DNA of 64,000 nucleotides from positions 32,001 through 96,000 of IMG/VR virus record IMGVR_UViG_3300044712_002690. One strand, written 5' to 3'. A program made the position numbers and the translations under genes. The stretch is from a virus. The stretch's first letter is position 1; each line of letters begins with the position of its first letter. The notes under the pieces are model-generated. The model did not search any database, was not told where the DNA came from, and saw only the letters and a list, made by a program, of their open reading frames with translations. Below are positions 12,683 to 59,956 of this stretch, piece after piece.

Positions 12683-13069
12683 TCATATATTAGTCGTATT
12701 GAGTCCTTGAACCGGTTGCACTGTCTGTTGAAATTCATCTGCTGGTACATACGCTGAACCTGAAGGACTAGCAGTACTATCAATTTGTACAATGCTTTGT
12801 CCTTCTGGTGTTTGTATTACATCTTCCACTTTATAAGGTGTTTTAGTCGCAGGATCAATGTATGTTTGACCTACTGTAGGGCCACCACCAACAGGCATCT
12901 GTGGACTAGCAATAGCTTGCTTAATAGGTTTAGCAAGTTTAAGTATAAGTATATCATCTACTACTTGATATCCTAACACATTTCCATACTGACCTGATTG
13001 TTTTATCAGGTCAGATATGGAAGCATCTTTAGTAAGAGGAATACTTATGAGTTTAGAATTTATAATCAT
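12683..13069 (-). CDS. Hypothetical protein
   Basis: 128 aa; contains KDAS and KQAIAS. Confidence 0.6.
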   Translation of the reverse strand: MIINSKLISIPLTKDASISDLIKQSGQYGNVLGYQVVDDILILKLAKPIKQAIASPQMPVGGGPTVGQTYIDPATKTPYKVEDVIQTPEGQSIVQIDSTASPSGSAYVPADEFQQTVQPVQGLNTTNI

Positions 13070-15895: not shown

Positions 15896-16267
15896 TCAAC
15901 TAATTGTTGAATAAGGAATTTTATCTTTATGGAGTTCTTGATATCTTCCTAATCCAGGTGTGCCTAATTCTTCTTCATTTATACTATCGTTAGTTTCAGT
16001 GTCTATAGTACTTAAACTATTTTTACAACTCATGTCACCGTATTCAGTAGCATATTTAGAAAAGTCTTCATAACACTTAAAAAATCTAAAAGAAGAAGTT
16101 CTTTGTCCTGTTGGTTCAGAAACTAATTCAACTTCTTCTCCTCTATTTCCAGTAACAGGTTTTATATCTTCAGAAGAAGATTGAGGAGTCATAAAAGGAT
16201 GAGATGTATTATCATCTGCCTTTTTAACTAACTCCTCAAAGCTTCTTATAGTAGAAAATAATATCAT
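15896..16267 (-). CDS. Hypothetical protein
   Basis: 123 aa; N-terminal FEELVKKADD. Confidence 0.55.
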   Translation of the reverse strand: MILFSTIRSFEELVKKADDNTSHPFMTPQSSSEDIKPVTGNRGEEVELVSEPTGQRTSSFRFFKCYEDFSKYATEYGDMSCKNSLSTIDTETNDSINEEELGTPGLGRYQELHKDKIPYSTIS

Positions 16268-18207: not shown

Positions 18208-18209
18208 AC

Positions 18210-18554
18210 TTATCCTCTCGATTTTTCTTGCTTTCTTAGAACAAGTGAATTTGAATTTTGGTTATACATTTCACTAGAAACTTCTTTAGCAACACGAAGG
18301 ATAACATCTACTGAATTATCATGATTTAATAAGCACTTTTCAGCTATGAAAATTTCTGCTTGAGGATATTTCTCTTTGTAATAATGAGCTGCTGCAGTTT
18401 CAAATGGTCCGTCTGTAATAAGACCCTTCTTACCAATACCTTTAAAAGATGTTCTGACATATCTAAGAAGGTTGAGATCAGCTAAGTCTTCCATGCTAAA
18501 TCTAACTAAACCTTTCTTTGAATTTATTTGGCTAACTTCTGGCATAATAATCAC
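18210..18554 (-). CDS. Hypothetical protein, first gene of the leftward arm
   Basis: 114 aa; GGAG RBS. Confidence 0.6.
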   Translation of the reverse strand: MIIMPEVSQINSKKGLVRFSMEDLADLNLLRYVRTSFKGIGKKGLITDGPFETAAAHYYKEKYPQAEIFIAEKCLLNHDNSVDVILRVAKEVSSEMYNQNSNSLVLRKQEKSRG

Positions 18555-20813: not shown

Positions 20814-22909
20814 TTCTTAATGAAATAGAACTTAAAGGATTTGGATCATATAGAGATCAGAATATTATATCTATACCTGTAGGACTTACAGGTATTGTTG
20901 GTGTTTATGAAGAGAATTCTCTTAAATCAATAGGTTCTGGTAAGTCTACTTTAGTTACTGCTCTTAATTATATTCTTTTTGGTAAAGGTGAATTTGATAA
21001 GATCGAGGAGCTTCTAAATGATCAATTAGGTGAAAAAGATGAATTTTTTGCTGGATGTAAATTCCAACAAGGTGATTCATCTTTTTATGTTAAACGTGGA
21101 AGAAATGGAAGCTCTTATCTTGAGCTTACAGAAAATGGTTCTCCAAGAGGCGAGCCTAAAATAGATGTAAGGACAGAGGAAATTAAAAAAATAGTAGGCA
21201 TGGACTATGATATGTTCACTGCCTCGGTGTTTTTTGAGCAAGACAGATTAAGTAAATTAATAGACACAGATCCATCTGTTAGACGTAATTATGTTGAAAA
21301 AGTTCTTGGTACATCTTTATGGACAGCTGGAAGCAAGTTAATTACTAAAGATAAAAATACTGCGAAAAAAGATGCAGATTTTATAGAAAGCGAAATTATT
21401 AAAATTGACTTAGCTATTTCAGAGCATTTAAAAACGATAGAAGTAGAAGAGACAATCAAAGCTCAATTAGCTATACTAACTAAAGATAAAAAAGATATTG
21501 ACGGACAACTTGCTTCTCTTGATTTTATTAAGTCGAAAAAAGATAAACTTTGTGATTTAGAAAATCAGCAAAATAAGTTGTTTATAAAACTTACTGATTA
21601 TTCAAATAAACTTGAAGCTCATCAACAGAAGTCAAAAAGCATTTTAGAATCAGTAGATGCAGAAAAGAAATCTTTAGCTGAAATTAAATGTGAGCTTTCT
21701 TTACTGTACAAACAAAGAGAAGAAAAAGAAAACGAACTAGAAGCAGCTAAAAATGAAGAATCTTTTGTTCAAGAAATGTTAAATAGTATATTTCAAAAAC
21801 TAACAAAAGATGACGCACAAAAAATTTCACTTTTATCGTCTAAGTTAGATGATGCTTCTGGTATTTGTCCAACATGTAATCAACCTATAACGATTGATTG
21901 TATAAAAAATAAAAACAAAGAAATTGATAAAGCAATTAAAGACTTACAAAAGTTAATTGACATTTCTTTACATGCACAAAAGGAAACTGAAAATAAAAAA
22001 CAGGAAATAGTAGATAAGATAGAACTTATTGAAACTGCATTAAAACAACTCTCTAAAAGAGAAACCGGACTAGTTGATAGAATTAGTACGATAGAAGCTA
22101 ACTTAGCTGGGTCTACAGCTTTTTTAGAATCTGCAGTAGTTATTGAAGAAGAATATAAATCTACAACTAGTAGTACACAAGAGCAATATAACAATATAGA
22201 AAAAGATATTGAAGAGATTACGAAGGAGATTGCTTCTCAAGAAGATAAATTAACTAAATATGAAGAATTAAAAAAGCAACAACTTACTTTATCTTCTTCA
22301 ATTACTGATTTAACTTTAGAACTAGGAAAAATTGTACATATTAAAGAAGATATTAAAAGATTAGAAGAAGAAAAGAAAGAAAAAGAAGCTGTACTCTCTA
22401 TTACACAATATTCAGTAAATATACTGAAAGCTTTAGAAGAAGAATTTGATACAATTCCTTCAGAGATTTTAACATCCTCTGTATATCAAATTGAAAAAGA
22501 AGCATCAGATATTATACATAACTTTATGCCTGAAATGAATGTGTTTGTTAGGGAGGATACAAGTAAAGTAAACAAACCTCTTCAGATCTTTTTTGAAGTA
22601 GAAGGAAAAAGAAGAAATTACAAACGCCTTTCCGGTGGACAGAAAACAATTGCTAATTTAGCATTGCGATTAGGATTTTCAAAAGTTATTTCTTCTAGAG
22701 TAGGAGCACATATTAATTTCTTGATTTTAGATGAACCTTTTGGTTATTTAGATTCATATACACGAGATCTTATTAAAAAAGTCTTGACAGAAATCAATAA
22801 ATGGTTTAAACAAATTATTGTTATTTCCCATGTTGACAATATTCAAGATTTTCCTAATATCATTAAAATAGTTATGAGTCAAGACGGTATAAGTAGAATA
22901 CAAACTTAG
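20810..22909 (+). CDS. sbcC: SbcC/Rad50-like ATPase
   Basis: Walker A GSGKST, long coiled coil with CPTC hook, signature LSGGQ, Walker B LILDEPF, ISH. Confidence 0.92.
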   Translation: MILNEIELKGFGSYRDQNIISIPVGLTGIVGVYEENSLKSIGSGKSTLVTALNYILFGKGEFDKIEELLNDQLGEKDEFFAGCKFQQGDSSFYVKRGRNGSSYLELTENGSPRGEPKIDVRTEEIKKIVGMDYDMFTASVFFEQDRLSKLIDTDPSVRRNYVEKVLGTSLWTAGSKLITKDKNTAKKDADFIESEIIKIDLAISEHLKTIEVEETIKAQLAILTKDKKDIDGQLASLDFIKSKKDKLCDLENQQNKLFIKLTDYSNKLEAHQQKSKSILESVDAEKKSLAEIKCELSLLYKQREEKENELEAAKNEESFVQEMLNSIFQKLTKDDAQKISLLSSKLDDASGICPTCNQPITIDCIKNKNKEIDKAIKDLQKLIDISLHAQKETENKKQEIVDKIELIETALKQLSKRETGLVDRISTIEANLAGSTAFLESAVVIEEEYKSTTSSTQEQYNNIEKDIEEITKEIASQEDKLTKYEELKKQQLTLSSSITDLTLELGKIVHIKEDIKRLEEEKKEKEAVLSITQYSVNILKALEEEFDTIPSEILTSSVYQIEKEASDIIHNFMPEMNVFVREDTSKVNKPLQIFFEVEGKRRNYKRLSGGQKTIANLALRLGFSKVISSRVGAHINFLILDEPFGYLDSYTRDLIKKVLTEINKWFKQIIVISHVDNIQDFPNIIKIVMSQDGISRIQT

Positions 22910-22919
22910 GAGCAGCTCA

Positions 22920-24350
22920 ATGGATGTTATGAATTTATATGAACAGTTTTTAGTACATACAAAATTAAGTGACGCAACATATAAAAGTGTTTTTATGCGA
23001 GTACAAGACATTATACAATCACTTAATCAGATTGAATTTGAGAAATTTAAATATGGTGTAAGAACAGAATCATTTTCAATAGACTTTAACAACCTACATG
23101 AAGATGTAGCACCATCATATGTTGTTGAAACTATTAAAAACTTATTTGATAAGTTTTTTACTTTTCCTAAAGATGGTGAAATTGAACTTGATATTAAGTA
23201 TGGAACTTCTGATTTTCAAGCAACACACAGTAATGGTATCATTACTATTCCACAGCAAATTTCCTTTTTTGAAAAATTAAAAGTATTTCCATTCTTTACA
23301 GTTATGGATTCTCCTGTAGATTATTATGATGAGTTTGATTATCTATTCAAGTTTCTGAATTTAAAAGACCCAGCAAGGACAATTTTTGGACCATTAAAAG
23401 AAGTATTTGATCAACAAACCGCAACAGAAGATGTTGATTCTGGTGAAATTTCACCTAGAACAGCAGCTAGTTATAGCATTATGATTGAAGATTTACAAGA
23501 TAAAAAAGAAAAGATTTTAAAGGAACTTGAGGATATTAAAGCCTCTAAGGATTCTTTATTAGCATTAAAAAATGATTTAGTCCAATTTGCACAATTTAAA
23601 GATAAGTATAATACAGAGTATTCAACACTTGTAGATGAGTTTAATTATCTTAAAGAACAGAAAGCTGGATATCTACAAAAGTATAGTGAGACATTATCTC
23701 TTATTGATGAAATTAATGTTACTCTTGCAGCAATGAAAGATGCAGAAACCAAAGATGAAGCAGAACTCAAGTATCTTGCAGAACGTAAAGTTTATTTTGA
23801 AAGCAGAGGAACTATGCTTACTAACTCTATTAAAGAGCTTAGTGGATTACAAGATACTACAAAGCGCAGAATTGAAGAACTTCAAAATATCTTTAAAAAG
23901 ACAGATAAAATGTCTTTAGAAGATTTAGAGGATATGTCAAAACAAATTGATGTTCTAGATAAGAAACAAGAAAGACTTTTTGCTAATGTAGGATCTATAG
24001 ATAATACAATTCAACAAACAAAAGAAGCTCAGGCTAATGCAAATATTACAATTGAAAGGGCTTCTTATTCAGATCATGTAATACAGAATGCTGGTAATCA
24101 AACAATTCCAGATCATTTAGCTAAACCTGAGATTCCAACTTCTGTTCTAGTTGTAAAAAATTATCTTAGATACTATTTTGTTTATCAATGCGAGAAAAAA
24201 GAAAAGTTCTTATTGACTCAAAAAAGATTTTTCTCTAAACCTCAAGTTAGTAGGTTAGTACTCAAAGAATACTTTGGATTTGAACCTAAAATCATTTTTA
24301 GTAAGCATCCAATTGAAGGATTCAATAATGTTATTTTGGTAGAAGGATAA
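22920..24350 (+). CDS. Hypothetical coiled-coil protein
   Basis: 476 aa with a long heptad-rich middle region. Confidence 0.6.
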   Translation: MDVMNLYEQFLVHTKLSDATYKSVFMRVQDIIQSLNQIEFEKFKYGVRTESFSIDFNNLHEDVAPSYVVETIKNLFDKFFTFPKDGEIELDIKYGTSDFQATHSNGIITIPQQISFFEKLKVFPFFTVMDSPVDYYDEFDYLFKFLNLKDPARTIFGPLKEVFDQQTATEDVDSGEISPRTAASYSIMIEDLQDKKEKILKELEDIKASKDSLLALKNDLVQFAQFKDKYNTEYSTLVDEFNYLKEQKAGYLQKYSETLSLIDEINVTLAAMKDAETKDEAELKYLAERKVYFESRGTMLTNSIKELSGLQDTTKRRIEELQNIFKKTDKMSLEDLEDMSKQIDVLDKKQERLFANVGSIDNTIQQTKEAQANANITIERASYSDHVIQNAGNQTIPDHLAKPEIPTSVLVVKNYLRYYFVYQCEKKEKFLLTQKRFFSKPQVSRLVLKEYFGFEPKIIFSKHPIEGFNNVILVEG

Positions 24351-26634: not shown

Positions 26635-26680
26635 ATCCCCTTTCTCTATTTTTTACAAAAAGTAGAAAGGGGATTTCTTT
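26635..26680 (+). terminator. Stem-loop (terminator-like) overlapping the RBS of the next gene
   Basis: ATCCCCTTTCT...AGAAAGGGGAT 11-bp stem followed by TTCTTT. Confidence 0.55.
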
Positions 26681-27359
26681 GAATATTCTTAATCTAACAG
26701 ATAGTGGTTTTACAAGAGTATTTGTTGTTGGTAGTCTTAATGGAGATTACTTTAAACTTATTGATTTGCTTTATGAGCAACAATTTACATATAGCGATGG
26801 TTTAGTACTTTGTGGTAATTTTGTAAATCAGGAATCTGATAATTTATTTGATATTTTTCATTTTTTAAAGAATAATAAGAATTGTTTTTCCGTTTTAGGA
26901 AAAAATGAAGTTGATTTTGTAGAAGCTTATAAAGAAGATAAACTACCTGAATTTTTACAAACACTAGTAGACACAGCGATTATTGAATACTTAGAAACAC
27001 TACCTTTAGCAATACAATTTGATAACTTTTTAGTTGTTAACGCAGGTATAGAACCTTCCAAAGAACTCCCAGATCAAGACGATAAAGTGTTTTATTCAAT
27101 TCCTTTATATGATAGGGAATCTAGGTATTATCAGTTTGAAAATCCAGAAAGTAAGTCCTGGTTTGATTTTACATTTGATCCATTAAAAATCTGCTTTACA
27201 AATAATTCTATTGAAGAAACAACAGTTGAAGCAGGATATAACTTAAAATCTTCCACATCAAATTTAGTTTGTCTAATTATAACGCCACAAAACGAAGTTC
27301 CTGTTATCATATCTGTAGAAGATAATATTTTAAAGAACAATTATGAGGTTAGACCGTGA
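26679..27359 (+). CDS. Calcineurin-like phosphoesterase homolog lacking metal ligands
   Basis: VVGSLNGD, CGNFVNQE, LGKNE and VNAG sit at the positions of GDIHG, GDxxDRG, GNHE and HAG. Confidence 0.7.
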   Translation: MNILNLTDSGFTRVFVVGSLNGDYFKLIDLLYEQQFTYSDGLVLCGNFVNQESDNLFDIFHFLKNNKNCFSVLGKNEVDFVEAYKEDKLPEFLQTLVDTAIIEYLETLPLAIQFDNFLVVNAGIEPSKELPDQDDKVFYSIPLYDRESRYYQFENPESKSWFDFTFDPLKICFTNNSIEETTVEAGYNLKSSTSNLVCLIITPQNEVPVIISVEDNILKNNYEVRP

Positions 27360-27676
27360 GATCAAGATTCGATGCTGACAGATTTGTAGAAAGATTAGCA
27401 GCTTCACAAGAAGTTATGTCTTTTGAAGTAGTAGAAGATTTATATGATTTTTCAGGAAATAATGCACAATTTCTTATACAGTTAGGTGTTGTAGGCCAGT
27501 ATGAAGTAAATCAGTTTTTATTTAAGAAAAAAGGACAAAGATTTGTTCGTATTGGTGAAAATACGTATGAAGCAGGTTCCCTTGTTTCGGGGTCAGGAGA
27601 ATCAGCAGTTTGGAATATTACTTCAGATGAAATAGAAGATTTAGTATATAGAAATTTAGTTAAAATAGTAGGGTAG
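27356..27676 (+). CDS. Hypothetical protein with leader variant FVERLAAS
   Basis: 106 aa; GTG start overlapping the previous stop. Confidence 0.55.
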   Translation: MRSRFDADRFVERLAASQEVMSFEVVEDLYDFSGNNAQFLIQLGVVGQYEVNQFLFKKKGQRFVRIGENTYEAGSLVSGSGESAVWNITSDEIEDLVYRNLVKIVG

Positions 27677-27681
27677 TTAAT

Positions 27682-28233
27682 ATGAGAAGTCAGGTTCTTG
27701 AACATTTTTATAGACGATTATCTGGCGAAGATTATGCAGCACCAGGATCTTCAATGTATCTTTCAGTAGAAGAAATTGCTAAAATATTATTTGGTGGAAT
27801 GCCTGGAATTATACAAGAATTTATAACATATCAAATTCTGGAGCATTTTAAAGATACAAGTTTTACTGATGACGACGATATGTATTATAATATAGAAGAT
27901 AAAGCGCTACTTGCATTTTTAGACTTACTTAAACAAGACGGAGAATTTTTTAAAGTAAGTAATAATTTAGAGGAATCTTTAAAGTTTGTTCGTGATCCCG
28001 ATGAATATATGCAATCTTTGTTAGATGATGGCATATCAGAGGATTATATTGATACTATGTATCATGTTGTTGGGATAGGACCTTCTTTTGAGAATCTTCC
28101 TCCGATTATTAATTACGTTAATGTTCCTGTAGTTACAGGATCGACAGCTGGTACTCATAGAGAAGCAACAGTACCTGCGCTAGTAACAGTCGATGGTGAT
28201 TTACTTGTAACAAGCTCATCGTTGGAAATTTAA
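27682..28233 (+). CDS. Acidic protein with leader FYRRLSG
   Basis: 183 aa. Confidence 0.6.
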   Translation: MRSQVLEHFYRRLSGEDYAAPGSSMYLSVEEIAKILFGGMPGIIQEFITYQILEHFKDTSFTDDDDMYYNIEDKALLAFLDLLKQDGEFFKVSNNLEESLKFVRDPDEYMQSLLDDGISEDYIDTMYHVVGIGPSFENLPPIINYVNVPVVTGSTAGTHREATVPALVTVDGDLLVTSSSLEI

Positions 28234-28273
28234 TATTTAATAGAAATTTAGTTAAAATAACAGGATAGTTATC

Positions 28274-28987
28274 ATGAGAAGACAAACCATAGAAGATTTT
28301 TATAGAAGGTTAGCAGGCGATCCTATAGATAAAACTAAAAATAATCCAATCAGACCTGTTGCTGGAGATTTTGATAAATTTGAATTAAACACCTCTAATT
28401 ATATGGATCTTTTACAGCCTGTTATTGATGATTATAAAGAGAAGGATTCAAGAAAGTATGAGGATATGGAAGAGCAACTTAAATCTGTTACAGATATAAA
28501 TGGGACTCCTATTGATCAATTGCACCCTTATGATCTTAACAGTTCTTCTTTTTCACAAGAAGCATTTTTATTGTTTAATTCTATATTTAATATTTCTGCA
28601 TTTGACTCTGATCTTTCATTAGAAGAAAACCTTGAGGCTCTTAAGTTTGATGAAATGGAGGATGTACCTGATAAACATTACCATGACGGGTATAGAGAAG
28701 AACACAAAAATTATAATCATATAATAGAATTTACTCAGATGGATGCAGATACTTGGGTGGAATTAAGTGTTTATCAAGATAAAAACACTGGTGAGATATT
28801 TTATTATGAAGAAGGAGATTTAAGAAGAGCAGACCCTCCTATGACATTAGATAAACTTATTTCTTTATTAAATGACATGGCTAGTCTATCTCCTCCAGAT
28901 AAACAACTTGATCCAGATGCTCCATCTGCTGCTTCTGAGGTTCAGAGATGGATGAGTAATATGAATTTTACTGCTGAATTAAATTAA
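28274..28987 (+). CDS. Acidic protein with leader FYRRLAG
   Basis: 237 aa; AGGA RBS. Confidence 0.6.
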   Translation: MRRQTIEDFYRRLAGDPIDKTKNNPIRPVAGDFDKFELNTSNYMDLLQPVIDDYKEKDSRKYEDMEEQLKSVTDINGTPIDQLHPYDLNSSSFSQEAFLLFNSIFNISAFDSDLSLEENLEALKFDEMEDVPDKHYHDGYREEHKNYNHIIEFTQMDADTWVELSVYQDKNTGEIFYYEEGDLRRADPPMTLDKLISLLNDMASLSPPDKQLDPDAPSAASEVQRWMSNMNFTAELN

Positions 28988-29021
28988 TTTTTATTGAAAG
29001 AATAATGGGATACATTTAGTT

Positions 29022-29846
29022 ATGTTACATTTTAAAAATTTTGCTCAAGGTGTTCTTGATGATTCAGATGATGCTAGAATTTGGGATTATCTTGATGAAC
29101 TGCTTCCTATTGTACTTTTAGAAGGAGAAGTAATGGATGAAAGTCCTGAACAGCCTTCAGAACCCATAGAATTACCTTATACTAATTTAAGACCATTAGA
29201 ATTAAAAAAAGGAGCTAAAGTTATAGCTGATATAGAAACAGAATATCCTAATGAATATGATTATATTATTGTATATAATGATTTTATTTATGTTACAGGT
29301 ATTGTAACAGGAATGACTAATATTGGGCCTATATCAGAATTAGATTCTGTTCTTAGTTTATTTGAAAAATATGCAGGTACTTTTTCTCTTATGGAAACAG
29401 ATTTTGAAGATGAAGAAATAGATGAGAGTAAAAAAATCTATCATTCTATTGAAAATAGAAGAAACAAACAGTTACAGGAATTTTATAAGAAATTAGCTTC
29501 TGTTCCAACATATAATCTTACTTGTGTAATACATGGTGGAATACTTCCTGATGGTACTCAAATTTTTACAAATGAAGAAGTAAATGAATTATGGAATCAG
29601 TTAAAACTTTTACTTCCTATAGAAGACACAGATTTAACTTTAGACGCATTAGAAGAAAAAGGTAAAATTATTGCAGAAGTATCTACATCATACAGACATG
29701 CAAAAGGTGCTGCAGGTGAAGATTATATTATACTATTTGGTGATTATGTAATTTTTACTGATTATGATTCTGGTGTTTTTCAATTAGGACCAAGAGAGAA
29801 TGCAGAAGCAGTATTAGACTTATTGAAAAAATATTCATGTGATTAA
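29022..29846 (+). CDS. Protein with a duplicated ~110-aa domain and an internal FYKKLAS motif
   Basis: W..L..LLPI...K.IA...T.Y...DYII...D...G...IGP/LGP...VL.L..KY occurs twice. Confidence 0.6.
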   Translation: MLHFKNFAQGVLDDSDDARIWDYLDELLPIVLLEGEVMDESPEQPSEPIELPYTNLRPLELKKGAKVIADIETEYPNEYDYIIVYNDFIYVTGIVTGMTNIGPISELDSVLSLFEKYAGTFSLMETDFEDEEIDESKKIYHSIENRRNKQLQEFYKKLASVPTYNLTCVIHGGILPDGTQIFTNEEVNELWNQLKLLLPIEDTDLTLDALEEKGKIIAEVSTSYRHAKGAAGEDYIILFGDYVIFTDYDSGVFQLGPRENAEAVLDLLKKYSCD

Positions 29847-29864
29847 TATTATAGGAGAATAAAA

Positions 29865-30407
29865 ATGGCTATTGAAAAAGAATATTATGTTCCTCTGTAT
29901 AGACTTGCGGTATCAAAGATACCTGAAGACTATAGATTGCAGCAAATCAGCGAGTGGCTTGCTAAAAATGCTCTTAAAGTTTCTAACCAAGCAGTTAGAG
30001 AAAGCTTTAAACGTGCAGGAAGAAAAGATCTTGTTGATGTATTTTTACAACAAGAAGATATTAGTGTTAATGATGTTGTTAAATCAAGATCAACTGGAAG
30101 ATTTGGTACTGTTGTTAAAGAGCATTGGGATGGCGAAACTGTTACAGTTAAATGGGATTCAGGTGGACAACAGCCTCTTTCTAAAGGATCTCTTTTTAAG
30201 ATACATGAAAAGAAAGAAGAGAGACTTGATAAGAATGATGTAGTTTTAGCAAAGTCAGACACAGAAGCATATGAAGAAATGACTGATAAGAAGAAGCAGT
30301 TTATTGAAATGAAAGATAACATGGCAAAGGAAAAAAAGAATAAATCTGCTTCTGAAGTAGAATACGAAACTTGGGTAAAATCTAAATTGTACAATGAAAG
30401 CAAGTAA
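29865..30407 (+). CDS. Protein with an SH3/KOW-like module
   Basis: VNDVVKSRSTGRFGTVV...VTVKWDSG; leader LYRLAV. Confidence 0.55.
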   Translation: MAIEKEYYVPLYRLAVSKIPEDYRLQQISEWLAKNALKVSNQAVRESFKRAGRKDLVDVFLQQEDISVNDVVKSRSTGRFGTVVKEHWDGETVTVKWDSGGQQPLSKGSLFKIHEKKEERLDKNDVVLAKSDTEAYEEMTDKKKQFIEMKDNMAKEKKNKSASEVEYETWVKSKLYNESK

Positions 30408-30696
30408 TAGAGAAAGATGTCTTGAATCTCTTTATGAGTTAATTAAGAAGATAGATGCTGAGAGATCTGAAAATGATCTCTTAGACACATCTTCGGATTA
30501 TTATCAAGATTTTAATTCTAAAGATAGAATTAGAGCTTTATTAGTAAAGCTTCATTCTTATTTTAATGGCGAATTAATGTTGTCACAAAGAGATATAGAT
30601 GAAACTTGGAATGAGGTTAGAACTTACTTATATAATTCAGGTTCTAATTTGCCTATAATTTATAATGTTATTTTAGCATGTAGTTTAGACGCATAA
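30394..30696 (+). CDS. Hypothetical protein
   Basis: 100 aa; overlaps the previous stop. Confidence 0.5.
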   Translation: MKASNRERCLESLYELIKKIDAERSENDLLDTSSDYYQDFNSKDRIRALLVKLHSYFNGELMLSQRDIDETWNEVRTYLYNSGSNLPIIYNVILACSLDA

Positions 30697-30713
30697 TTTA
30701 CTAGGATATTGTT

Positions 30714-32339
30714 ATGAACTATTTTGATTTTTACCTGCGTTTATCCGCTGTAACTATTTCAAAGTTGCATGAGAAATATCAAGATCAAATACCTTTAGAA
30801 GATTTAGAAGGTATTATAAGATCAGACCCTACTTATCCAGGTGGAGATCAAGTAGGATCATATGGTCCTTGGTTAGTAAAACAATATCTACAAGGATCTT
30901 TTGATTTATCTATGTCAAATGAAATGATAACATTACTAAATGAATTTACACGCTATAAACCTAATTTAGAAAAGAAAGATATATATACGTATCAATCTGT
31001 TGATGAACTACATCAAGCAGTAGCACCTTTTATTTACTATCAACCTAACGAAGAAGAAACTTCAGCAGAACCAAGCATACTTTATGATGATGGTATTTGG
31101 GTTGCAGTTAAACCAAATACATTTGAAGAAGAATGTTTTTATGGGCAAAAAACTACATGGTGTACTAAAAGTAACTCTTCCATGTTTCAAAAGTATCAAG
31201 GAAATCTTTTTATTATAATAAATAGAAAAGAAAATAAAAAGTTTCAATTTGATCTTAAAGATTATCAATTTAAAAATGAAAAAAATCAAGAGGATCTTGA
31301 AGGATTTTTAAATTTAAATCCACCACAAGAACTCCTTACTTCATTAGGAATACAAGATATTCTTACTCCTCCTGCTACAGCACCTGAACTTAGCCAAGTA
31401 CAAGTAGCTGTACAAGAAAGAATTTCTAAATTTCTTTCTTTAAATCAAGATAATGAAAAAATGCTTGCAGAAGCATTATCTGTTGTAAATATTCCATTTG
31501 ATAAAGCTGATTCACTAGAAACATATAACGCAATATCAAATACAAAAGCAGTTCGTATGCACTATCTACAAAAAATGATACAAAATACTCCTTCTCCTAC
31601 AATTGATATAATAGAATCCCTAGCGCAGGATCCTAAGTATGTTCTTCTTGATAATGCACTTAATTATTTATATTATAGAAATTCTGCTATTACTACGTAT
31701 CAAAATATAGCTAATCCTTCAACTGGCTCATTTAGAGATAAAGCACTTAGACTAAATAAAGATCCATTTGATGAAGCAGATAAACGTCATATTCATACTG
31801 TAGATATAGAAAATAATACAATAAGCAAAGATAGACGTGTAAGCGATCTTGTTAAAGAAATTACAATAGATTCACCTAAATGGAAAGAATTTGGAAAAGA
31901 TGGTGAATTATTTACAAGTAACATTCCTAGACGATTAGTTAAAGAGATAAGAGCATTTGAGGAAGATGAATATAGTGAACACAACAAATATATGGAAGCT
32001 GTATTTGACATAGGAGAGACTTTTTTTGAATACGTTGCGGAAGCAGGTGTTGCTTGGATACAAGGTAATTCTATATCTCCACAACAAATGCAAGACGCAA
32101 AAATAGTATATTATTTTCTTGATAGTGTCCGTGCTACTGATCCTACGTTTGAAGGATTTTTCATGGATAGTTTTTATGATATTTGGCCAGGTATTCTTAG
32201 TGAAATGGGAACTGAAGATTTAGCTGAACTTGGAGTTAATTCAGATCCTATGGTATATTTTGATATGGGAAGTGACATTCTATTTGAAACAGAAATGGGA
32301 CATTCTTTCTTAAGATTTGTATTTGGAATAATTGAATAA
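30714..32339 (+). CDS. GxxTxWCT-domain (PcfJ-like) protein, paralog 1
   Basis: ILYDDGIWVAVKPNTFEEECFYGQKTTWCT...LFIIIN...KFQFD; leader FYLRLSA. Confidence 0.6.
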   Translation: MNYFDFYLRLSAVTISKLHEKYQDQIPLEDLEGIIRSDPTYPGGDQVGSYGPWLVKQYLQGSFDLSMSNEMITLLNEFTRYKPNLEKKDIYTYQSVDELHQAVAPFIYYQPNEEETSAEPSILYDDGIWVAVKPNTFEEECFYGQKTTWCTKSNSSMFQKYQGNLFIIINRKENKKFQFDLKDYQFKNEKNQEDLEGFLNLNPPQELLTSLGIQDILTPPATAPELSQVQVAVQERISKFLSLNQDNEKMLAEALSVVNIPFDKADSLETYNAISNTKAVRMHYLQKMIQNTPSPTIDIIESLAQDPKYVLLDNALNYLYYRNSAITTYQNIANPSTGSFRDKALRLNKDPFDEADKRHIHTVDIENNTISKDRRVSDLVKEITIDSPKWKEFGKDGELFTSNIPRRLVKEIRAFEEDEYSEHNKYMEAVFDIGETFFEYVAEAGVAWIQGNSISPQQMQDAKIVYYFLDSVRATDPTFEGFFMDSFYDIWPGILSEMGTEDLAELGVNSDPMVYFDMGSDILFETEMGHSFLRFVFGIIE

Positions 32340-32351
32340 TAAGGAGTAGTT

Positions 32352-33011
32352 ATGAGAAATTTACATTTACAACAATTTTATAAAAAAATAGGTATTGACG
32401 AACAATCAGCAATTATGCCTTATGATGATTCTAATGAAGTAGAAAAGCAAAAACAATTTGCTGAAAATGTAGTAACATTATTCGATAGTTTTTTAAATTC
32501 TGAACAATTTAATGTTATTAAAGCAACTAAATCTCCAATGGAGATATTCGATACAGCAGCAATAATGACTCATGCTGCTATTCATGAAAAATTAGAACAG
32601 CAGGGTAAAATTGATAAACATCCTGCTCTTCTTACAATATCAGAATATGCAGAGTATTTTGATAATTTAAGAAATGAAGATCCCGAACGTTTTGATATTG
32701 AATTTAAAGAATTTCAAGATAATCCACCTCAAGATTATATTGAAGCTAATGAAATTTTAGTAGCAGAACAACTTGGATTAATGTTTATGGGTGACGAACC
32801 CTCTAGAGAAAGAAAAATGTTTAATATGATTCAAGATATTCTTGTACAGAATAGACTACCAGCTATTCAATTAGAATTCAAAGATAATGCAAGGATACCA
32901 TATAAGAGACCAAGACCAGGAATGGGAATGCCAGGAATAGGCGGACCTGGAATGCCTCAAGGATTACCTGGTGGAAGACCCGGACTACCTGGACCAAGAG
33001 GAAGAGGATAA
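32352..33011 (+). CDS. Protein with leader FYKKIG and a Gly/Pro/Arg-rich tail
   Basis: Ends RPRPGMGMPGIGGPGMPQGLPGGRPGLPGPRGRG. Confidence 0.6.
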   Translation: MRNLHLQQFYKKIGIDEQSAIMPYDDSNEVEKQKQFAENVVTLFDSFLNSEQFNVIKATKSPMEIFDTAAIMTHAAIHEKLEQQGKIDKHPALLTISEYAEYFDNLRNEDPERFDIEFKEFQDNPPQDYIEANEILVAEQLGLMFMGDEPSRERKMFNMIQDILVQNRLPAIQLEFKDNARIPYKRPRPGMGMPGIGGPGMPQGLPGGRPGLPGPRGRG

Positions 33012-33028
33012 CATTTAGGGTTATTGTT

Positions 33029-34579
33029 GTGAAAGAAAATTATTTTTCATTTTATGAACGTATAGCTGCTATAACTGTTTCTAAATTACATGAAATGTAT
33101 GATGAACAGTTAGGTGAACAAGTAGTTAATGATATTATCTCCTCTGATCCAACATATATTGGAGGAGATAGTATAGGTTCATATACCCCATGGATCTTTA
33201 AACAAATTACAAATAGAATTATTGATCTGGATCAATTAGTAGTTGTTACACAAGCACTTGATCTATTTAATAGGTATAAACCTAATTTAGAAGTCAGAGA
33301 TATTTATCAGTATCAGTCATTAGATGAATTATTAGGTGTGTTAGATTCTTATTTACCAAAACAAGTTCCAATGGAAAAGGGATCTGAAGAAATATTATAT
33401 GACAATGGAACTTGGCTTTTAGTAAGTCCTTTTACATTTGAATCAGAATGTAACTGGGGATCAGGTACGAAATGGTGTACTACAGACCAACATGGAAAAG
33501 AGAGTGGAAGACGAACTTTTGAAAGCATAATGCAAAAATCTTTATTATATATTATCATAAATCAACAAACTGGTGAAAAATATCAATTTGATAATCATAC
33601 CGGTCAGTTTATGAATTCTTTAGATAGAGAAAGCTATGAACAATTTATAAATAGTGATCCTCCAAAAGAATTAATTTCTTTTATTGAAAAAAATACTCCG
33701 AATGTAATACAAAAGTTTATAGAAAATCGAGAAAAAGAAGCAGAGTTTCAAAGAAATTTATCTAATTTTTTCCCTATAAAAGAACAATTAATTAATCATA
33801 TTCAAGAAACAGTTGGAACACTTGATACAAGAGTGTTACTTAAGACTATTGTTTCTAAATTTATAGAAATAGTAGGTAAACCTATACTTGATTATGAACA
33901 AATTCGTGAAATTATAAGAAGCAATGTTGAGTTATATGATCTTTCCAAGTCATACGAACTTATTTCTATAATTAATGATGATAAAGAACTATTGACTGCT
34001 ACTAGTCCTGAAGAAATAGATCTTAATTTTTATGTTCAAGGAAGAATAGATTATTTTATACGTAGACTAACTGATGATGAATTTAACTTTTATGATATTA
34101 CAAATAAAATTGTGAATCTTGCAAAAAATGAAGCAAGAAAAGAAGTAAGAAAAAAAGTAAAGAATCCTCGTCAAGCAGCTGTTACTTCATTAAGACAAAT
34201 TATAGAAAATTATCCTTCTAATAGTTTTACAGCACATGATATCATGGGTGTAATTTTACAGGATGATGAATTAAAAGAAATATTTACTACAGCGTATCAG
34301 CATGCAGATCCTGAAGTTATAAAGACGCAATGGAGTCTTTATCATTTTAATGATTTTTTAGAAAAGCTTATAAATCAAACATTATATAAAGAAGGACTTG
34401 TAACTAGAAAAACAAACCGTAACCCTACTCCTGGTGAAAATTGGTATACTAATGCAGAGGAATTAGGTTATGGTCCTAATGTGGGACATAGTAGTGTGGT
34501 TACTTATACAAAAGTTCCACAAGAGCAAAGACAAAGTAGTTATGTAGGTCTCTATAATAATAGAAACTGGTGGATGTAA
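33029..34579 (+). CDS. GxxTxWCT-domain (PcfJ-like) protein, paralog 2
   Basis: N-terminal ~230 aa align by eye to 30714..32339 (SDPTY.GGD..GSY.PW, RYKPNLE..DIY.YQS.DEL, GSGTKWCT); the C-terminus is unrelated. Confidence 0.65.
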   Translation: MKENYFSFYERIAAITVSKLHEMYDEQLGEQVVNDIISSDPTYIGGDSIGSYTPWIFKQITNRIIDLDQLVVVTQALDLFNRYKPNLEVRDIYQYQSLDELLGVLDSYLPKQVPMEKGSEEILYDNGTWLLVSPFTFESECNWGSGTKWCTTDQHGKESGRRTFESIMQKSLLYIIINQQTGEKYQFDNHTGQFMNSLDRESYEQFINSDPPKELISFIEKNTPNVIQKFIENREKEAEFQRNLSNFFPIKEQLINHIQETVGTLDTRVLLKTIVSKFIEIVGKPILDYEQIREIIRSNVELYDLSKSYELISIINDDKELLTATSPEEIDLNFYVQGRIDYFIRRLTDDEFNFYDITNKIVNLAKNEARKEVRKKVKNPRQAAVTSLRQIIENYPSNSFTAHDIMGVILQDDELKEIFTTAYQHADPEVIKTQWSLYHFNDFLEKLINQTLYKEGLVTRKTNRNPTPGENWYTNAEELGYGPNVGHSSVVTYTKVPQEQRQSSYVGLYNNRNWWM

Positions 34580-36636
34580 GAATGATAAAACTATCATCTA
34601 TACTTGATTATCAACAACAAGAACTTTGTCCAGAGATATGGAATGGCTTTGTATTAAAACCTGAAATAAAAGAATTCTTATGGTTTTTATTAAAGAGTTT
34701 TTATGATAGTCAAGATCTTAAAGGATATGATGAATGGATTGCCGAGGGAATTATTGCTTCTTCTCTTGCAACTTATTTTTATAATGAAAATACTGATTTT
34801 GATATCAAAGTATTTATAGATTTAGATGTTCTTATTGAATATAATCCGCATCTAACAAAATTTACTGACGATCAGATTCTTGAAATAATGAAAAAGGAAG
34901 GTAGAAAATCATACTATCTTACTCAAGTTATTCCTGGAACTAATCATCAAGTAGATTTTTACTTTTTACCCGCAAGTGATTTACAACATCTTAATATGTT
35001 GAAGTATGATTCTGTATATTTACTTTCAAAAGATGAATGGTTAAAAGAGCCACAAAAATTAGTTGAAGGATTATCTCCTGCTTATATTATGCAAGTAGCA
35101 AGAGAGAAAGCAGAACCCTATCTTAAAAAGATTTCTGAAGACATAGAACAAACTAAAGATGACTGTCTTGATTTCTTAGTGTTAAGAGATTTCTTGAAAG
35201 ACTTAGATCCTCAAGACCTAAATAGTTTAAGAGAAGAATTTGAAAGACAATTAGATATAATCGAATATGATATTGACCAACTTGTAGAAGATAAGAATGA
35301 AATGAAGGAAATCAGAAAGAGAGAATATGATAGAAAATCTCTTAAAACTGAATTAGAAAAGTTAATGGGATCACTGAATTATAGTGATGGAAATCTTATT
35401 TTTAAACTTGTGCAGAGATATGGGTATCTTAAAATACTTGTTGAAATTAAAGAGCTATATGAAGACAAAAATATAGTTTCTAGTGACGTCGAAAATATAC
35501 TTTCTCTTCTTACTGCAACAGCAGTAAACGAAGAAAACAGAAAGTATGCAGATGTAATTAGTGATATTATTAAAAAATATCAACAGTTTTTTACAGATGA
35601 ACAAATGCAATATATACTTAATGTTGTTCCAAGATCTTTTATTCCCTGGGTATTTAGAGAATTGAAAAATTACATATTAGAATTAAGAACGGATGAAACA
35701 GATGATGAACCACCTCCTTTTAACAAAGAAACTGTTCAGTATGCTTTTCAAGATAGAAATCTATTAGCAGATATAGATAATTGGGTTAAATATTTAACAT
35801 TTTTTGTTGATAATAAGCAAAAAATAAAAGAGAAGGGATTGGTTGTAAATATTAATGATTATACTCTTGATGATTTGAAATGGGTTGTGTATAATTTTGA
35901 TCCTTCTATTAAGTATACTAGTTATGTTAATCAAGAAAAACTCAATAATAGCGATGCTGATATAGTATATGATGATCAATATTGGACTATATATGCAATG
36001 TATGATGAAGAAACTGCATGTATTTTAGGTGAAGGTACAGATTTATGTACAACAAGAGGAAAGTTTCATGATTATTATACACAAAACAATCCTATTTACA
36101 TGTTATTAAATAAAACAGATAACCATAGATGGCAATTTGATAAAAAATCAATGATGTTTGTCACAGAAGATGACGAATCTGTAAACTTTAAAACTTTTTT
36201 TGATACATATAATGAACAAATATCAAATGAATTAACACAAAAATTATATGAACTGTCTGGTAAATCTATATTTATGTATGTGAATGATAAAAATAGTATA
36301 GAATATCAATTCGGTTTAGTTGGATTAGACTATAATAAATTTGTTGAGGTACAACAAACTCAGCCCAATCTTACTCCGGGAGAAGCTATTTATAAAATAG
36401 AAGACGCATACTATTCAAGTATAGAGTCTATATTAAATGTATATCATACTTATTTATCAGTTTTAGGAAAGGATTTAGCGGATTCTTATTTACTTGCTAA
36501 ACTAGAGGATTGGCATCATCAAGGTATTCACGAGTTAAAATATCAATTACATTTAATTATTTCAGGGCAAAATAATGGATTAGAAGATATAGAATATTAT
36601 CAAGAATTGCTTAATATATTACATGAGATTAGTTAA
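34570..36636 (+). CDS. Pol-beta-superfamily nucleotidyltransferase fused to a C-terminal GxxTx(W/L)CT domain
   Basis: LCPEIW...LKPEIKEFL, SSLATYFY...TDFDIKV and QVDFY motifs; C-terminal GEGTDLCT...RWQFD. Likely start is ATG 34582 (MIKLSS). Confidence 0.7.
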   Translation: MDVRMIKLSSILDYQQQELCPEIWNGFVLKPEIKEFLWFLLKSFYDSQDLKGYDEWIAEGIIASSLATYFYNENTDFDIKVFIDLDVLIEYNPHLTKFTDDQILEIMKKEGRKSYYLTQVIPGTNHQVDFYFLPASDLQHLNMLKYDSVYLLSKDEWLKEPQKLVEGLSPAYIMQVAREKAEPYLKKISEDIEQTKDDCLDFLVLRDFLKDLDPQDLNSLREEFERQLDIIEYDIDQLVEDKNEMKEIRKREYDRKSLKTELEKLMGSLNYSDGNLIFKLVQRYGYLKILVEIKELYEDKNIVSSDVENILSLLTATAVNEENRKYADVISDIIKKYQQFFTDEQMQYILNVVPRSFIPWVFRELKNYILELRTDETDDEPPPFNKETVQYAFQDRNLLADIDNWVKYLTFFVDNKQKIKEKGLVVNINDYTLDDLKWVVYNFDPSIKYTSYVNQEKLNNSDADIVYDDQYWTIYAMYDEETACILGEGTDLCTTRGKFHDYYTQNNPIYMLLNKTDNHRWQFDKKSMMFVTEDDESVNFKTFFDTYNEQISNELTQKLYELSGKSIFMYVNDKNSIEYQFGLVGLDYNKFVEVQQTQPNLTPGEAIYKIEDAYYSSIESILNVYHTYLSVLGKDLADSYLLAKLEDWHHQGIHELKYQLHLIISGQNNGLEDIEYYQELLNILHEIS

Positions 36637-36648
36637 ATATACACAATA

Positions 36649-37413
36649 ATGGAAAAATATTCGTATAGTAAAATTTCCTTATATTCTCAATGTCCTTATA
36701 AATATAAGAAACTTTATATAGAAAAATTGCCAAGTAAAATTGCTTGGCAAACTTGTTTAGGTATATCAACTGCTGACATTTTAGAAAAGATGTATAAAGA
36801 TGAGGAAATCCTATCTAATTATGCTTGTGGTCCAACACCTGAATTACTTATTTGCTTAATCGAACAGTATTGGATACCAAATCAGTATAAAAAACAATTT
36901 GCAGAATCAAACTTAGAAACACATAAGTTTCTTTGTTATCCAAGTAAACCAGCGGAATTACGTGAGAAAGAGAACCTTTTAAAATACCTTACTTTTTATT
37001 TTAAATATCGTAAACTTGAGAAAAAGTTTGGTGTTGAATTACCATTTGAAGTTCCTTTCGATGACTTTTTATTAACTGGTAGGATAGATTTACTGAATAA
37101 AGTAGGAAATCACTTAGATATTATAGATAATAAAGTAACAAGTAATTTTCTAAATGATACATTTGAAAGCATTCAATTAGGAATTTATTACTATGCAATT
37201 AAAAAACTATTCCCTAGATTCCAGATTGGGAAAGTAGGTTATTACTACATTAAGCAATCTAGAGAGGTTTTAATTAACAGTGATTTATTAAAAGTTGATA
37301 TTATATATAGAAAGATAAGAGATTCCGTAGAAGGAATTAGAAATAAGAAATTTAATTGTTCTCCAAATCAATATTGTAATTTTTGTGAGTTTAAAAATGA
37401 ATGTGGAGCGTAG
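36649..37413 (+). CDS. RecB/Cas4-like PD-(D/E)XK exonuclease
   Basis: SYSKISLYSQCP, GRIDLL, IIDNK, QLGIY and C-terminal C...CNFC...C. Confidence 0.85.
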   Translation: MEKYSYSKISLYSQCPYKYKKLYIEKLPSKIAWQTCLGISTADILEKMYKDEEILSNYACGPTPELLICLIEQYWIPNQYKKQFAESNLETHKFLCYPSKPAELREKENLLKYLTFYFKYRKLEKKFGVELPFEVPFDDFLLTGRIDLLNKVGNHLDIIDNKVTSNFLNDTFESIQLGIYYYAIKKLFPRFQIGKVGYYYIKQSREVLINSDLLKVDIIYRKIRDSVEGIRNKKFNCSPNQYCNFCEFKNECGA

Positions 37414-44428: not shown

Positions 44429-45541
44429 ATGAAAACGAAGTTAATTACAGAAAAGTTAAATACTTGCCTTTCATATATTGGAATGATTGTTAAAGGTGAT
44501 GGACTAGTTCCTATTTATAATCAAATCCAATTAGATTTTAAAGATAATATTCTTGAAATTTCAGCATATGATAATAGTTATGGTGTTCAAGTTAAATATG
44601 GTAAATGTGAGCATCCTAACGGAAGGTACTTAATTGATGGACCTTCCTTTATTCACCTACTTAAGTTTAGTTCTTCTATTGAAATAGAAGTTGATTTTCA
44701 GGAAGGTCAGTTGGTTGTAAAAGAACAAGGTAATAAATATAACTTTATCTACTTTAAGAATGAGAGAGATGTTGACCTTAGTTATATTTTTACAACATAT
44801 TCTGAATTACCTGAACCTATTGTACAAATAACGTCAAAAGAATTTTCTGAGGTTTATAAATTTCTTAGTCCTACTATTGGACAGGATGTTGCTAGACCTT
44901 TTCTTATGGGAATACAATATGATGGTAATTTTGTAGCTACTGATGGTAATAATTGTGGTGTTTATTCTTACAAACCATTACAAGAGAAAAAGATTTTTTT
45001 ACCAAAAGGTGGACTAGATTTTCTTTGCTCATTTCCTAATGAAGAACCGTTTAGTATTTATGATGTTAATAATATGATTGTGATTGTTTGGAATAATGTA
45101 GAATTTGTTATTCCACAGATAAACGGTGCTTATCCAAATTATCATGTGTTGAGCGAAAGAACAAAGAGTTATCCTTTTACAGTTAAATTAAACAAAGCTG
45201 AATTTTATAGAAGCTGTCAAAAACTTGTTCCTTTTGCAGATAAACATATGCGTAAATTTTGTTCAGCAATATTTATGACGGATGGTTCCGTTCTTATTTC
45301 TGCTGCCTCTGAGGGTACTAAAGCAGGCCAGGAAAGTGTAAAACCCTTAGAAGCTACTGTACCAGATAAAGACCTTTTAATACATCCTAGTATTAAAAAG
45401 TTAGCTGAGTTAATTGCTGCACATTCTTGTGAGAATCTTACTATTAGATTTTCTAGTAATTCAGCAGCCCCACTTGTGCTAACTGATAATAATGTTGGTT
45501 TTCATTATATGAGCGTATTCAATCTAAGTCAGGAAGGCTAA
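44429..45541 (+). CDS. dnaN: DNA sliding clamp (DnaN/beta-like)
   Basis: 370 aa; motifs VARPFLMGIQY, VATDG, GAYPNY; adjacent to the polymerase. Confidence 0.85.
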   Translation: MKTKLITEKLNTCLSYIGMIVKGDGLVPIYNQIQLDFKDNILEISAYDNSYGVQVKYGKCEHPNGRYLIDGPSFIHLLKFSSSIEIEVDFQEGQLVVKEQGNKYNFIYFKNERDVDLSYIFTTYSELPEPIVQITSKEFSEVYKFLSPTIGQDVARPFLMGIQYDGNFVATDGNNCGVYSYKPLQEKKIFLPKGGLDFLCSFPNEEPFSIYDVNNMIVIVWNNVEFVIPQINGAYPNYHVLSERTKSYPFTVKLNKAEFYRSCQKLVPFADKHMRKFCSAIFMTDGSVLISAASEGTKAGQESVKPLEATVPDKDLLIHPSIKKLAELIAAHSCENLTIRFSSNSAAPLVLTDNNVGFHYMSVFNLSQEG

Positions 45542-59715: not shown

Positions 59716-59956
59716 AGAGCAGTCTGGAAATTCTGTTTCAATCTATATTTCTGATTTAAAATCTTATTCTGAAGTTCAAGATGAGATTAAAGAAGAATGG
59801 TTTAAACAGTATGGACGAACTCTTAGTAAAAGTGAGATTGTTATGAAATCTTTGATTTATCTACGTGATGCTCTTAAAGGAAAATCTCCTTTTGAAGAAG
59901 AATCTAAGAGAACAATAACATCCACAAGACAAAGTTTTTGTAGATTACATAAATGA
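59693..59956 (+). CDS. Small putative DNA-binding (RHH-like) protein
   Basis: SVSIYISD...LSKSEIVMKSL. Confidence 0.4.
   Translation: MSHTYMSKEQSGNSVSIYISDLKSYSEVQDEIKEEWFKQYGRTLSKSEIVMKSLIYLRDALKGKSPFEEESKRTITSTRQSFCRLHK

Follow-up and report, generated by a model that had tools for sequence, protein, structure and literature searches.

The window analysed here is a stretch of 64,000 nucleotides, bases 32001–96000 of a single virus record (IMG/VR record IMGVR_UViG_3300044712_002690; 178,984 bp, 32% G+C). Its main subject is a leader of ~15 amino acid residues, the F-Y leader, that is shared by proteins encoded in the window and elsewhere in the record. This leader is a real tag that is position-constrained, under selection at the peptide level and carried by unrelated sequences. 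Regarding its role, the leader may be a portable amphipathic helix that acts as an address label, directing proteins into the phage head during its assembly, a reading that we hold tentatively and at a little less than even. All genome-wide counts are based on 277 proteins obtained by calling open reading frames on the record in its entirety (178,984 bp). Through the major capsid protein (MCP), five related IMG/VR records (G001–G005) were found, and four of them were compared over their full length. The closest, G001 (236 kb), has an MCP 84% identical to that of this phage, followed by G005, G003, G002 and G004 with identities of 68–72%.

A shared N-terminal leader on unrelated proteins

The strict pattern [FY][YV].[RK][LI][AGS] was matched nine times in the 277 proteins, whereas 500 within-protein shuffles produced 1.7 matches on average and never more than 6. 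Eight of the matches began within residues 1–12, for which 0.096 were expected and the shuffle maximum was 2. Thus, the shared leader proposed in the initial annotation of this DNA is real, and its enrichment at N-termini exceeds chance. Six of the N-terminal members are in the window, a seventh window copy is internal (residue 154 of the 29022 protein), and two of the nine members are found outside the window, in the tail module. The members are as follows, with the genes of the window named by their first positions in the text:

27356–27676, plus strand: 106-residue leader protein with the F-V-E-R-L-A-A variant (profile 20.8 bits at residues 1–18)
27682–28233, plus strand: 183-residue acidic leader protein (profile 27.5 bits)
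28274–28987, plus strand: 237-residue acidic leader protein (profile 25.9 bits)
29022–29846, plus strand: 274-residue protein with two homologous halves (profile 23.7 bits at residues 146–162)
30714–32339, plus strand: 541-residue leader protein with a PcfJ-like (G-x-G-T-x-W-C-T) domain
32352–33011, plus strand: 219-residue leader protein with a Gly/Pro/Met-rich C-terminal tail
33029–34579, plus strand: 516-residue leader protein with a PcfJ-like domain, paralogue of the 30714 protein
17990–18253 of the genome, minus strand: leader member, 87-residue gene directly after the tail tube gene
22574–23326 of the genome, minus strand: leader member, 250-residue gene upstream of the sheath gene

With a profile built from the nine leaders, the members scored 14.5–29.8 bits and the next best protein of the genome 3.6 bits. 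Of the variants listed in the initial annotation, F-V-E-R-L-A-A-S of the 27356 protein was confirmed as a member by its profile score, as was the internal copy in the 29022 protein, which opens the second half of a tandemly duplicated protein. The other two were set aside, as both scored below the profile range: L-Y-R-L-A-V of the 29865 protein is integral to a protein that is conserved in leaderless relatives, and M-I-K-L-S-S at 34582 is not kept in the G001 orthologue. The sequence S-F-Y-R-K-L-Q of a helicase (61342–61377), to which the initial annotation drew attention, scored higher with the leader matrix than any other non-member, at rank 9. In the helicase (59953–61395) the motif is C-terminal and ends in Q-Q-E. 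The pentamer [RK][RK][LI][AS][GNAS] was also tried and rejected: it occurred 11 times for 3.4 expected, and after removal of the leaders 7 times for 3.4 expected, which was not significant.

The consensus sequence M-[RK]-x-x-h-L-x-x-F-Y-[RK]-[RK]-L-[AS]-G leads into acidic residues, and the leaders end in [KR]-[LI]-[AS]-[GAS]. By inspection, the leader is predicted to be an amphipathic helix. The Arg codons of the core were AGA, CGA, AGG and CGT, and the Leu, Ser and Gly codons also differed synonymously between copies. Because the core codons vary synonymously and across both Arg codon families, it is the peptide, rather than the DNA, that is under selection.

When the first 20 residues were removed, only the 30714 and 33029 proteins and the C-terminal half of the 34570 protein remained related by BLAST (E below 0.1). 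No similarity was found past the shared N-terminus except among these three sequences, and the members do not appear to be a single diverged paralogue family. Every leader member is acidic, with net charges of -5 to -36. The earlier statement that the sequences after the leader are mostly unrelated and acidic is upheld, the PcfJ-like 30714 and 33029 proteins being the related ones. The small leader members have no homologues, and the 27682 protein matched no Pfam or PHROG family. The estimate of about 10 cargo proteins, including enzymes, did not hold: there are nine members, none of which has an enzyme domain recognisable by Pfam or PHROG, and the presumed enzyme at 34570 is a nucleotidyltransferase-like fusion without the leader. 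To see whether the leader extends past this clade, 1.84 billion representative proteins were searched by word index and, exhaustively, with HMMER; the only matches were the sequences of this phage and G001 used for training.

The organisation of the cluster suggests how the set arose. In addition to the members, the following features are involved:

27648–27728, plus strand: first copy of an 81-nucleotide DNA repeat, with the second copy at 28240–28320 (79% identity)
29865–30407, plus strand: 180-residue basic protein in the cluster, by the leader profile not a member, conserved in leaderless relatives
30394–30696, plus strand: 100-residue protein in the cluster without F-Y leader, with an M-N-F-like helix at residue 12
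34570–36636, plus strand: 688-residue leaderless fusion of an N-terminal half and a PcfJ-like half

Each copy of the 81-nucleotide repeat consists of 34 nucleotides upstream of the ATG and the first 47 nucleotides of the leader coding sequence, and the 27682 and 28274 genes are alike only up to the end of the leader, their remainders being unrelated. The 29022 gene is a tandem duplication of a ~154-residue unit (BLASTP E 1e-9; DNA repeat spaced 462 nucleotides), of which the N-terminal leader is decayed and an intact leader starts the second half (codons at ~29469–29513). The two genes fused at 34570 (region 34570–37413 of the window) stand apart in G001, where an exonuclease gene lies between them and the N-terminal half is a separate 320-residue gene; its nucleotidyltransferase label was not confirmed by Pfam or PHROGs. 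The separate PcfJ-like gene of G001 begins with the leader, which the orthologous domain lost where it is fused at 34570. Between the phosphatase and exonuclease genes, G001 contains only one leader gene, the 180-residue gene and the 320-residue gene. The leader gene of G001, which encodes 98 residues, holds the same position as the 27356 gene, whose GTG start overlaps the stop of the phosphatase gene. The remaining leader genes in the cluster of this phage are a lineage-specific expansion. The small gene after the tail tube gene has a counterpart at the corresponding position in G001 that resembles it in the leader alone. Among the 277 proteins, a Gly/Pro/Met-rich stretch such as that of the 32352 protein (32892–33011) was otherwise found only in the scaffold-like head protein (3294–5408).

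The head module, its presumed protease motif and a second leader type

The phage is a large myovirus that is not T4-like and only distantly related to cultured phages. Comparison with GenBank phages at the DNA level revealed no close relatives, and its MCP is 24–33% identical at most to those of known phages, the best match being Virus Rctr197k (33% identity), with Motura and phiRSL1 next. Because a 239,416-bp contig carries identical copies of the window proteins, the record may be incomplete. The head module is on the minus strand and extends up to 18.5 kb of the window. It contains, in order, the genes for the MCP, a 235-residue protein, a 704-residue scaffold-like protein, a 469-residue protein, the maturation protease and the portal, and it includes several large proteins without assigned function. 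The genes most relevant to this study are:

1372–2553, minus strand: major capsid protein (PHROG 2522 at E 6e-56)
3294–5408, minus strand: 704-residue scaffold-like head protein with a conserved C-terminal helix E-F-L-K-V-A-S, then an invariant K-T-A-S
6885–7760, minus strand: prohead maturation protease (PHROG 18299 at E 4e-13)
9636–12665, minus strand: portal gene of the head module

Between the portal and protease genes, a 115-residue protein with a lipoprotein-type signal (a hydrophobic stretch, then Cys) is encoded at 8364–8711.

The motif [KR]-x-A-S occurred 19 times in the 16 head-module proteins, for 3.2 expected (z about 8–9), and 23 times in the other 261 proteins, for 18.8 expected. 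Moreover, [KR]-x-A occurred 88 times in the head-module proteins compared with 48 expected. Eleven control patterns were flat in the head proteins, including [KR]A, [KR]..A, A.[KR], [DE].A, [KR].S, [LI].E and [AGS].E; for [LI]-x-E the count was 84 compared with 82 expected. The head modules of G001–G004 showed a like enrichment of [KR]-x-A-S, whereas the rest of their proteomes did not. From this enrichment in head proteins, we infer that the prohead protease recognises [KR]-x-A-S. Because [KR]-x-A-S is enriched ~6-fold in the head module and [LI]-x-E and [AGS]-x-E are not, the results also point to a protease that does not cut after Glu.

The positions of the motif are consistent with such a specificity. 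The MCP contains K-T-A-S and K-V-A-S within its first 25 residues, and [KR]-T-A-x is kept in 4 of 5 genomes. The protease itself has K-I-A-S at residue 26, and the invariant K-T-A-S of the scaffold-like protein stands near its C-terminus. In a 939-residue protein (13072–15891), K-E-A-S and K-G-A-S stand directly before Met at two joints, and the modules that these joints separate are encoded by separate genes in G001, G003 and G004, so that the joints look as would those of a polyprotein cut by a protease. The protease had no Pfam family at E 0.01 and thus is not of the T4 S77 type by Pfam. A sequence search of the PDB gave no match for it, and an AlphaFold2 model from 5 sequences reached a predicted local distance difference test score (pLDDT) of 32, so no kinship with T4 gp21 or herpesvirus assemblin is claimed.

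The C-terminal helix of the scaffold-like protein, E-F-L-K-V-A-S, resembles the leaders, a likeness that is short and weakly significant. Within the C-terminal 45 residues of the protease (6885–7010), V-Y-R-M-I-S and K-R-R-L-A-G resemble the two halves of a leader. Three segments of this tail ranked 126–203 of 53,185 segments when compared with the leader, which is suggestive only. In HK97, the tail of the protease targets the enzyme to the procapsid.

A second N-terminal tag, M-N-F-R-x-h-x-x-I-N-x-L-I-K-K-[SA], was identified on nine proteins of G004, six of them encoded in one row. The proteins carrying it include an NT5C-like nucleotidase, whose G001 orthologue lacks the tag, a GNAT acetyltransferase, a DUF5662 protein and the products of two small genes between the portal and protease genes, the position at which T4 has its core genes 67 and 68. 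The gene for the DUF5662 protein (L044:6901–8613) is interrupted by an intein with a C2H2 zinc finger. G003 has the second-type motif at the N-terminus of one head-module protein, and two others carry it at internal positions. A matrix made from the nine G004 tags placed 21 of its 80 best positions in the head modules of the four other genomes, compared with 7.9 expected (per-genome P 0.015, 0.07, 0.12 and 0.006), and among its matches is the helix conserved at the C-terminus of the scaffold-like proteins of G001, G002 and G003. In the phage studied here, two head-module matches rank among the highest:

12683–13069, minus strand: 128-residue protein adjoining the portal gene, with K-D-A-S and then a second-type helix at residue 17 (rank 1)
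15896–16267, minus strand: 123-residue head-module protein with the second leader type at its N-terminus (top 4 of ~56,000 positions)

The M-N-F-like helix of the 30394 protein, a protein of the leader cluster, ranked 7 of ~56,000 positions with the same matrix, which is weak evidence that it is of the second leader type. One G004 tag (…I-D-G-F-F-R-K-I-S-E-E) is intermediate between the F-Y and M-N-F types. In addition, ~120–150 kb of G003 (L059–L061) contains ~20 paralogous genes for proteins of 65–95 residues that start with S-K-I-I-K-I and have a C-x-x-x-C-P motif; they form a different, expanded mini-protein family.

Possible head loading, the PcfJ-like family and alternative explanations

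If the leader directs head loading, its helix would dock on the interior of the procapsid, as the similar helices of the scaffold-like and head-module proteins may do. The terminal [KR]-[LI]-[AS] would lie at or near a site of the prohead protease, with an apparent specificity for [KR]-x-A then S, and would be cut there. The acidic cargo would then be enclosed with the DNA and could be delivered at infection. Head loading explains the position constraint of the leader, its portability, the presence of members in late operons, and its kinship with the helices of head proteins and with the head-specific motif. The portability is seen in the sequences that are unrelated past residue 20, the 81-nucleotide repeat that ends after the leader, the loss of the leader at 34570 and the tail gene of G001. 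Leader genes are also located inside late structural operons, namely the tail module of this phage and the portal–protease region of G004. The packaging tag proposed initially stands as a portable N-terminal tag on unrelated cargo, and head loading is its best-supported, though circumstantial, reading. Also in its favour are the T4-type leaders and the PA5oct virion protein of the PcfJ-like cargo family, the second leader type of the sister phages described above, the Gly/Pro/Met-rich tail that the 32352 protein has in common with the scaffold-like protein alone, and the precedents of T4 and P1.

The PcfJ-like proteins suggest where the tag came from. The core G-x-G-T-[KR]-W-C-T of this family and its flanking strands are present in the cargo, and T147, W149, C150 and T151 are invariant in the alignment. 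At least 553 relatives were found in IMG/VR with the core pattern. Of 45 distinct family members, 38 have [LIVM]-x-E in residues 4–18, compared with a background of 26%; a T4-type S77 protease is encoded on two of five large contigs hosting family members, and the member of phage PA5oct is annotated "structural protein, ESI-MS/MS" (electrospray ionisation tandem mass spectrometry). Because of these L-x-E leaders, S77 hosts and PA5oct annotation, the PcfJ-like family in T4-type phages would be a typical leader-bearing head protein. One host contig of a family member, G007 (L143–L149), is a T4-like phage fragment with an S77 protease. On this fragment, M-A-K-I-V-R-L-T-E-S-D-L, M-K-Y-I-I-T-E and M-N-L-R-x-T-I-R are shared leaders, each found on 5 to 10 proteins.

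The AlphaFold2 model of residues 1–215 of the 33029 protein had a pLDDT of 83.5, with ~56 for the leader helix (residues 2–13) and 90 and above for the domain. The PA5oct structural protein was among the top matches of this model in BFVD. PcfJ-like proteins matched by Foldseek in BFVD at E 2e-3 to 5e-2, ranking behind phage proteins that are closer but unnamed, and the hint from the Atlas was weak. Pfam PF14284 (PcfJ) did not match the cargo domain at E 0.1. In the search for a function of the domain, a PDB sequence search yielded nothing, Foldseek against the PDB yielded nothing below E 0.1, and VIA-align gave Z ≤5.3 to GNAT-like alpha/beta folds, which is within noise.

The nearer homologues of the 33029 protein, P0014, P0015 and P0016, start with F-F-H-R-L-A-G, F-Y-Y-R-L-S-A and a full leader, respectively. 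The distant homologues possess ~20 extra N-terminal residues that include L-x-E, after which comes a helix alignable with the F-Y motif, and the PcfJ-like proteins of this phage lack the L-x-E part and begin at this first helix. The tag may thus have descended from the first helix of the widespread PcfJ-like family and, in this lineage, have been copied onto other genes via duplication and recombination at the leader.

Several observations weigh against head loading. Regarding the genome context, the seven window members are part of a tightly packed operon with the SbcCD, dUTPase, phosphatase and exonuclease genes (gaps of 5–40 nucleotides), and the first of them is translationally coupled to the phosphatase gene. 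This plus-strand region begins at 18990 and contains SbcCD, dUTPase and phosphatase genes, the leader cluster, and genes for a Cas4-like exonuclease, single-stranded DNA-binding protein, PolA and beta clamp, of which two serve as landmarks:

26679–27359, plus strand: phosphatase gene, directly before the leader cluster
44429–45541, plus strand: beta-clamp homologue, downstream of the leader cluster

A late promoter of the cluster was not identified; a sigma-70 scan gave 115 matches for 110 expected, which is chance. Neither was a terminator found inside the cluster, and a k-mer search of 71 intergenic regions returned A/T runs only and no promoter motif. Such a replication-type operon context weakens the head-loading reading, as does the imperfect match of the leader end to the presumed cleavage motif. 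The initial annotation held that the leader ends in the same motif as the MCP propeptide. The leader end is indeed close to the head-enriched [KR]-x-A-S, but exact K-x-A-S is found in only 1 of 9 leaders; the presumed cut position is Ala in 5 of 9 and Ser in 3 of 9, and [KR]-x-S is not enriched in the head proteins. Moreover, the cargo is acidic, unlike the internal proteins of T4, which are basic. In the T4-type homologues of the PcfJ-like family, the equivalent helix follows the L-x-E site and is therefore part of the mature protein and not a removable signal. The F-Y leader is also limited to this phage and its closest relatives among the representative proteins searched. Finally, the F-Y and M-N-F leader profiles aligned as expected but were not significantly alike (hhalign P 0.25), so the evidence from the second leader type transfers only by analogy and through the one intermediate sequence.

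Some of these observations would fit a helix that is a docking peptide for a shared partner outside the virion, either a phage hub, such as the leaderless 34570 fusion, or a host protein targeted in common by these early acidic proteins. The cluster is in an early or replication-type operon, the PcfJ-like proteins have the F-Y helix conserved as their first helix and retain it after L-x-E in the T4-type members, the 34570 fusion has no first helix in cis, and the low confidence of the leader helix relative to the domain is that expected of a detachable element. Such a partner would leave unexplained the leader genes in tail and head operons, the closeness of the tag end to the head-specific [KR]-x-A-S and the related helix in the scaffold-like and other head proteins, and we consider it unlikely.

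Equally unlikely in our judgement is that the shared N-terminus has no addressing role and is inherited baggage of tandem duplication and 5'-fragment chimerism in fast-evolving paralogues. The 81-nucleotide repeat that takes in upstream DNA, the internal duplication of the 29022 gene with a decayed leader on its first half, and the paralogy of the 30714 and 33029 genes are consistent with this explanation. Against it stand leader residues that are kept through synonymous and cross-family Arg changes while the downstream sequences have diverged beyond detection, two members 40 kb away in the tail module, one of which keeps its position in G001 but resembles its counterpart in the leader alone, and the G004 tag on plainly different folds (HAD-type nucleotidase, GNAT and DUF5662).

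An element acting at the level of nucleic acid, such as a translation-initiation or recombination cassette in which the peptide is incidental, is highly improbable. The 27682 and 28274 copies have their ribosome-binding region and start in common, and the ip loci of T-even phages shuffle at conserved ends. However, the nine copies differ at synonymous sites and in Arg codon families while the peptide is kept, upstream DNA is common to this one pair only, and the internal 29022 copy lacks a start context. Scarcely credible is a PIP-box-like peptide binding the sliding clamp or another replication hub, as suggested by the h-x-x-F-Y spacing, which recalls PIP and beta-clamp motifs, and by the adjoining replication genes: the clamp of this phage belongs to the beta type, and the leader does not match Q-L-x-L-F, the motif known for that type; a PIP-box Gln is absent or misplaced, members occur in tail and head operons, and the helix runs on into [RK]-[RK]-L-[AS]-G, which is not known from any clamp motif. 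Explanations other than head loading and these four are improbable as well.

Head loading could also be part of a broader system, which we regard as possible but doubtful. A clade of large non-T4 myophages would use interchangeable N-terminal head-loading helices, of the F-Y type in this phage and G001 and of the M-N-F type in G002–G004. The helices would copy the docking helix of the scaffold, end at a Lys-x-Ala-Ser site of a protease whose non-glutamate specificity resembles that of herpesvirus assemblin, and be grafted onto acidic orphan proteins and enzymes, yielding a natural orthogonal tag set derived from the first helix of a widespread family of internal proteins. If the F-Y tag works as the tags of T4 and P1 do, loading by short N-terminal addresses would be a general strategy of large phages, with the address re-fitted to the assembly machinery of each lineage, L-x-E in T4-type phages and [KR]-x-A-S here. 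The acidic orphans, together with the nucleotidase and acetyltransferase of the sister phages, would be candidates for delivery with the DNA, and the leader would add a second, sequence-orthogonal tag by which foreign proteins could be loaded into phage heads. Scaffold mimicry is suggested as a concrete mechanism by the link to the C-terminal helix of the scaffold-like protein.

Comparison with known capsid-targeting systems

To our knowledge, capsid-targeting tags have been experimentally established only for T4 and, with one protein, for P1. The capsid-targeting sequence (CTS) of T4 is a short N-terminal amphipathic peptide on unrelated proteins (IPI, IPII, IPIII and Alt; Mullaney and Black, 1996; PMC9026906), of which 10 residues are sufficient for packaging (PMC9026906). 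The F-Y leader is alike in this design, in the location of its members in a plastic gene cluster, in perhaps ending at or near a motif that the resident head protease seems to cut, and in that its PcfJ-like cargo family has true L-x-E leaders in other phages. Different from T4, however, the protease here falls outside Pfam S77, and the head proteins show no enrichment of [LI]-x-E. The tag, at ~15 residues, is longer than the 10 of T4 and has [KR]-[LI]-[AS] at its end where T4 has Glu. The cargo proteins are acidic, their genes belong to a replication operon, and packaging and cleavage are predicted from sequence. Given the lack of an S77 protease and of L-x-E, the F-Y tag system is not a member of the T4 system.

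Similar to the F-Y leader, an N-terminal stretch of 9–30 residues suffices to carry DarB into the capsid of P1, likewise a myophage outside the T4-like group, and DarB's N-terminal 30 residues are enough for packaging (PMC9024508). Different from the tagged gene family described here, DarB is one protein, and it has no sequence likeness to the F-Y leader.

In phiKZ and SPN3US, the prohead protease cuts many internal head proteins at a short linear motif, in which head proteins are enriched, as they are in the presumed motif of this phage (PMC5694885, PMC7411985). These papers describe no shared portable leader for either phage. Their cuts are made after Glu ([S/A/G]-x-E), whereas [KR]-x-A-S is the enriched motif here.

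A short helix that docks a protein inside the procapsid is also part of the P22 scaffold, whose C-terminal helix binds coat protein, and of the HK97 protease, whose C-terminal tail targets the capsid; the leaders described here resemble a conserved helix near the C-terminus of the scaffold-like protein. However, the helices of P22 and HK97 are parts of assembly proteins and not tags spread over accessory cargo. A full-text search of the literature returned no paper on such leader families or on PcfJ-like proteins as packaged cargo. The F-Y tag would extend the leader-tag idea to a non-T4 lineage with a different presumed protease specificity.

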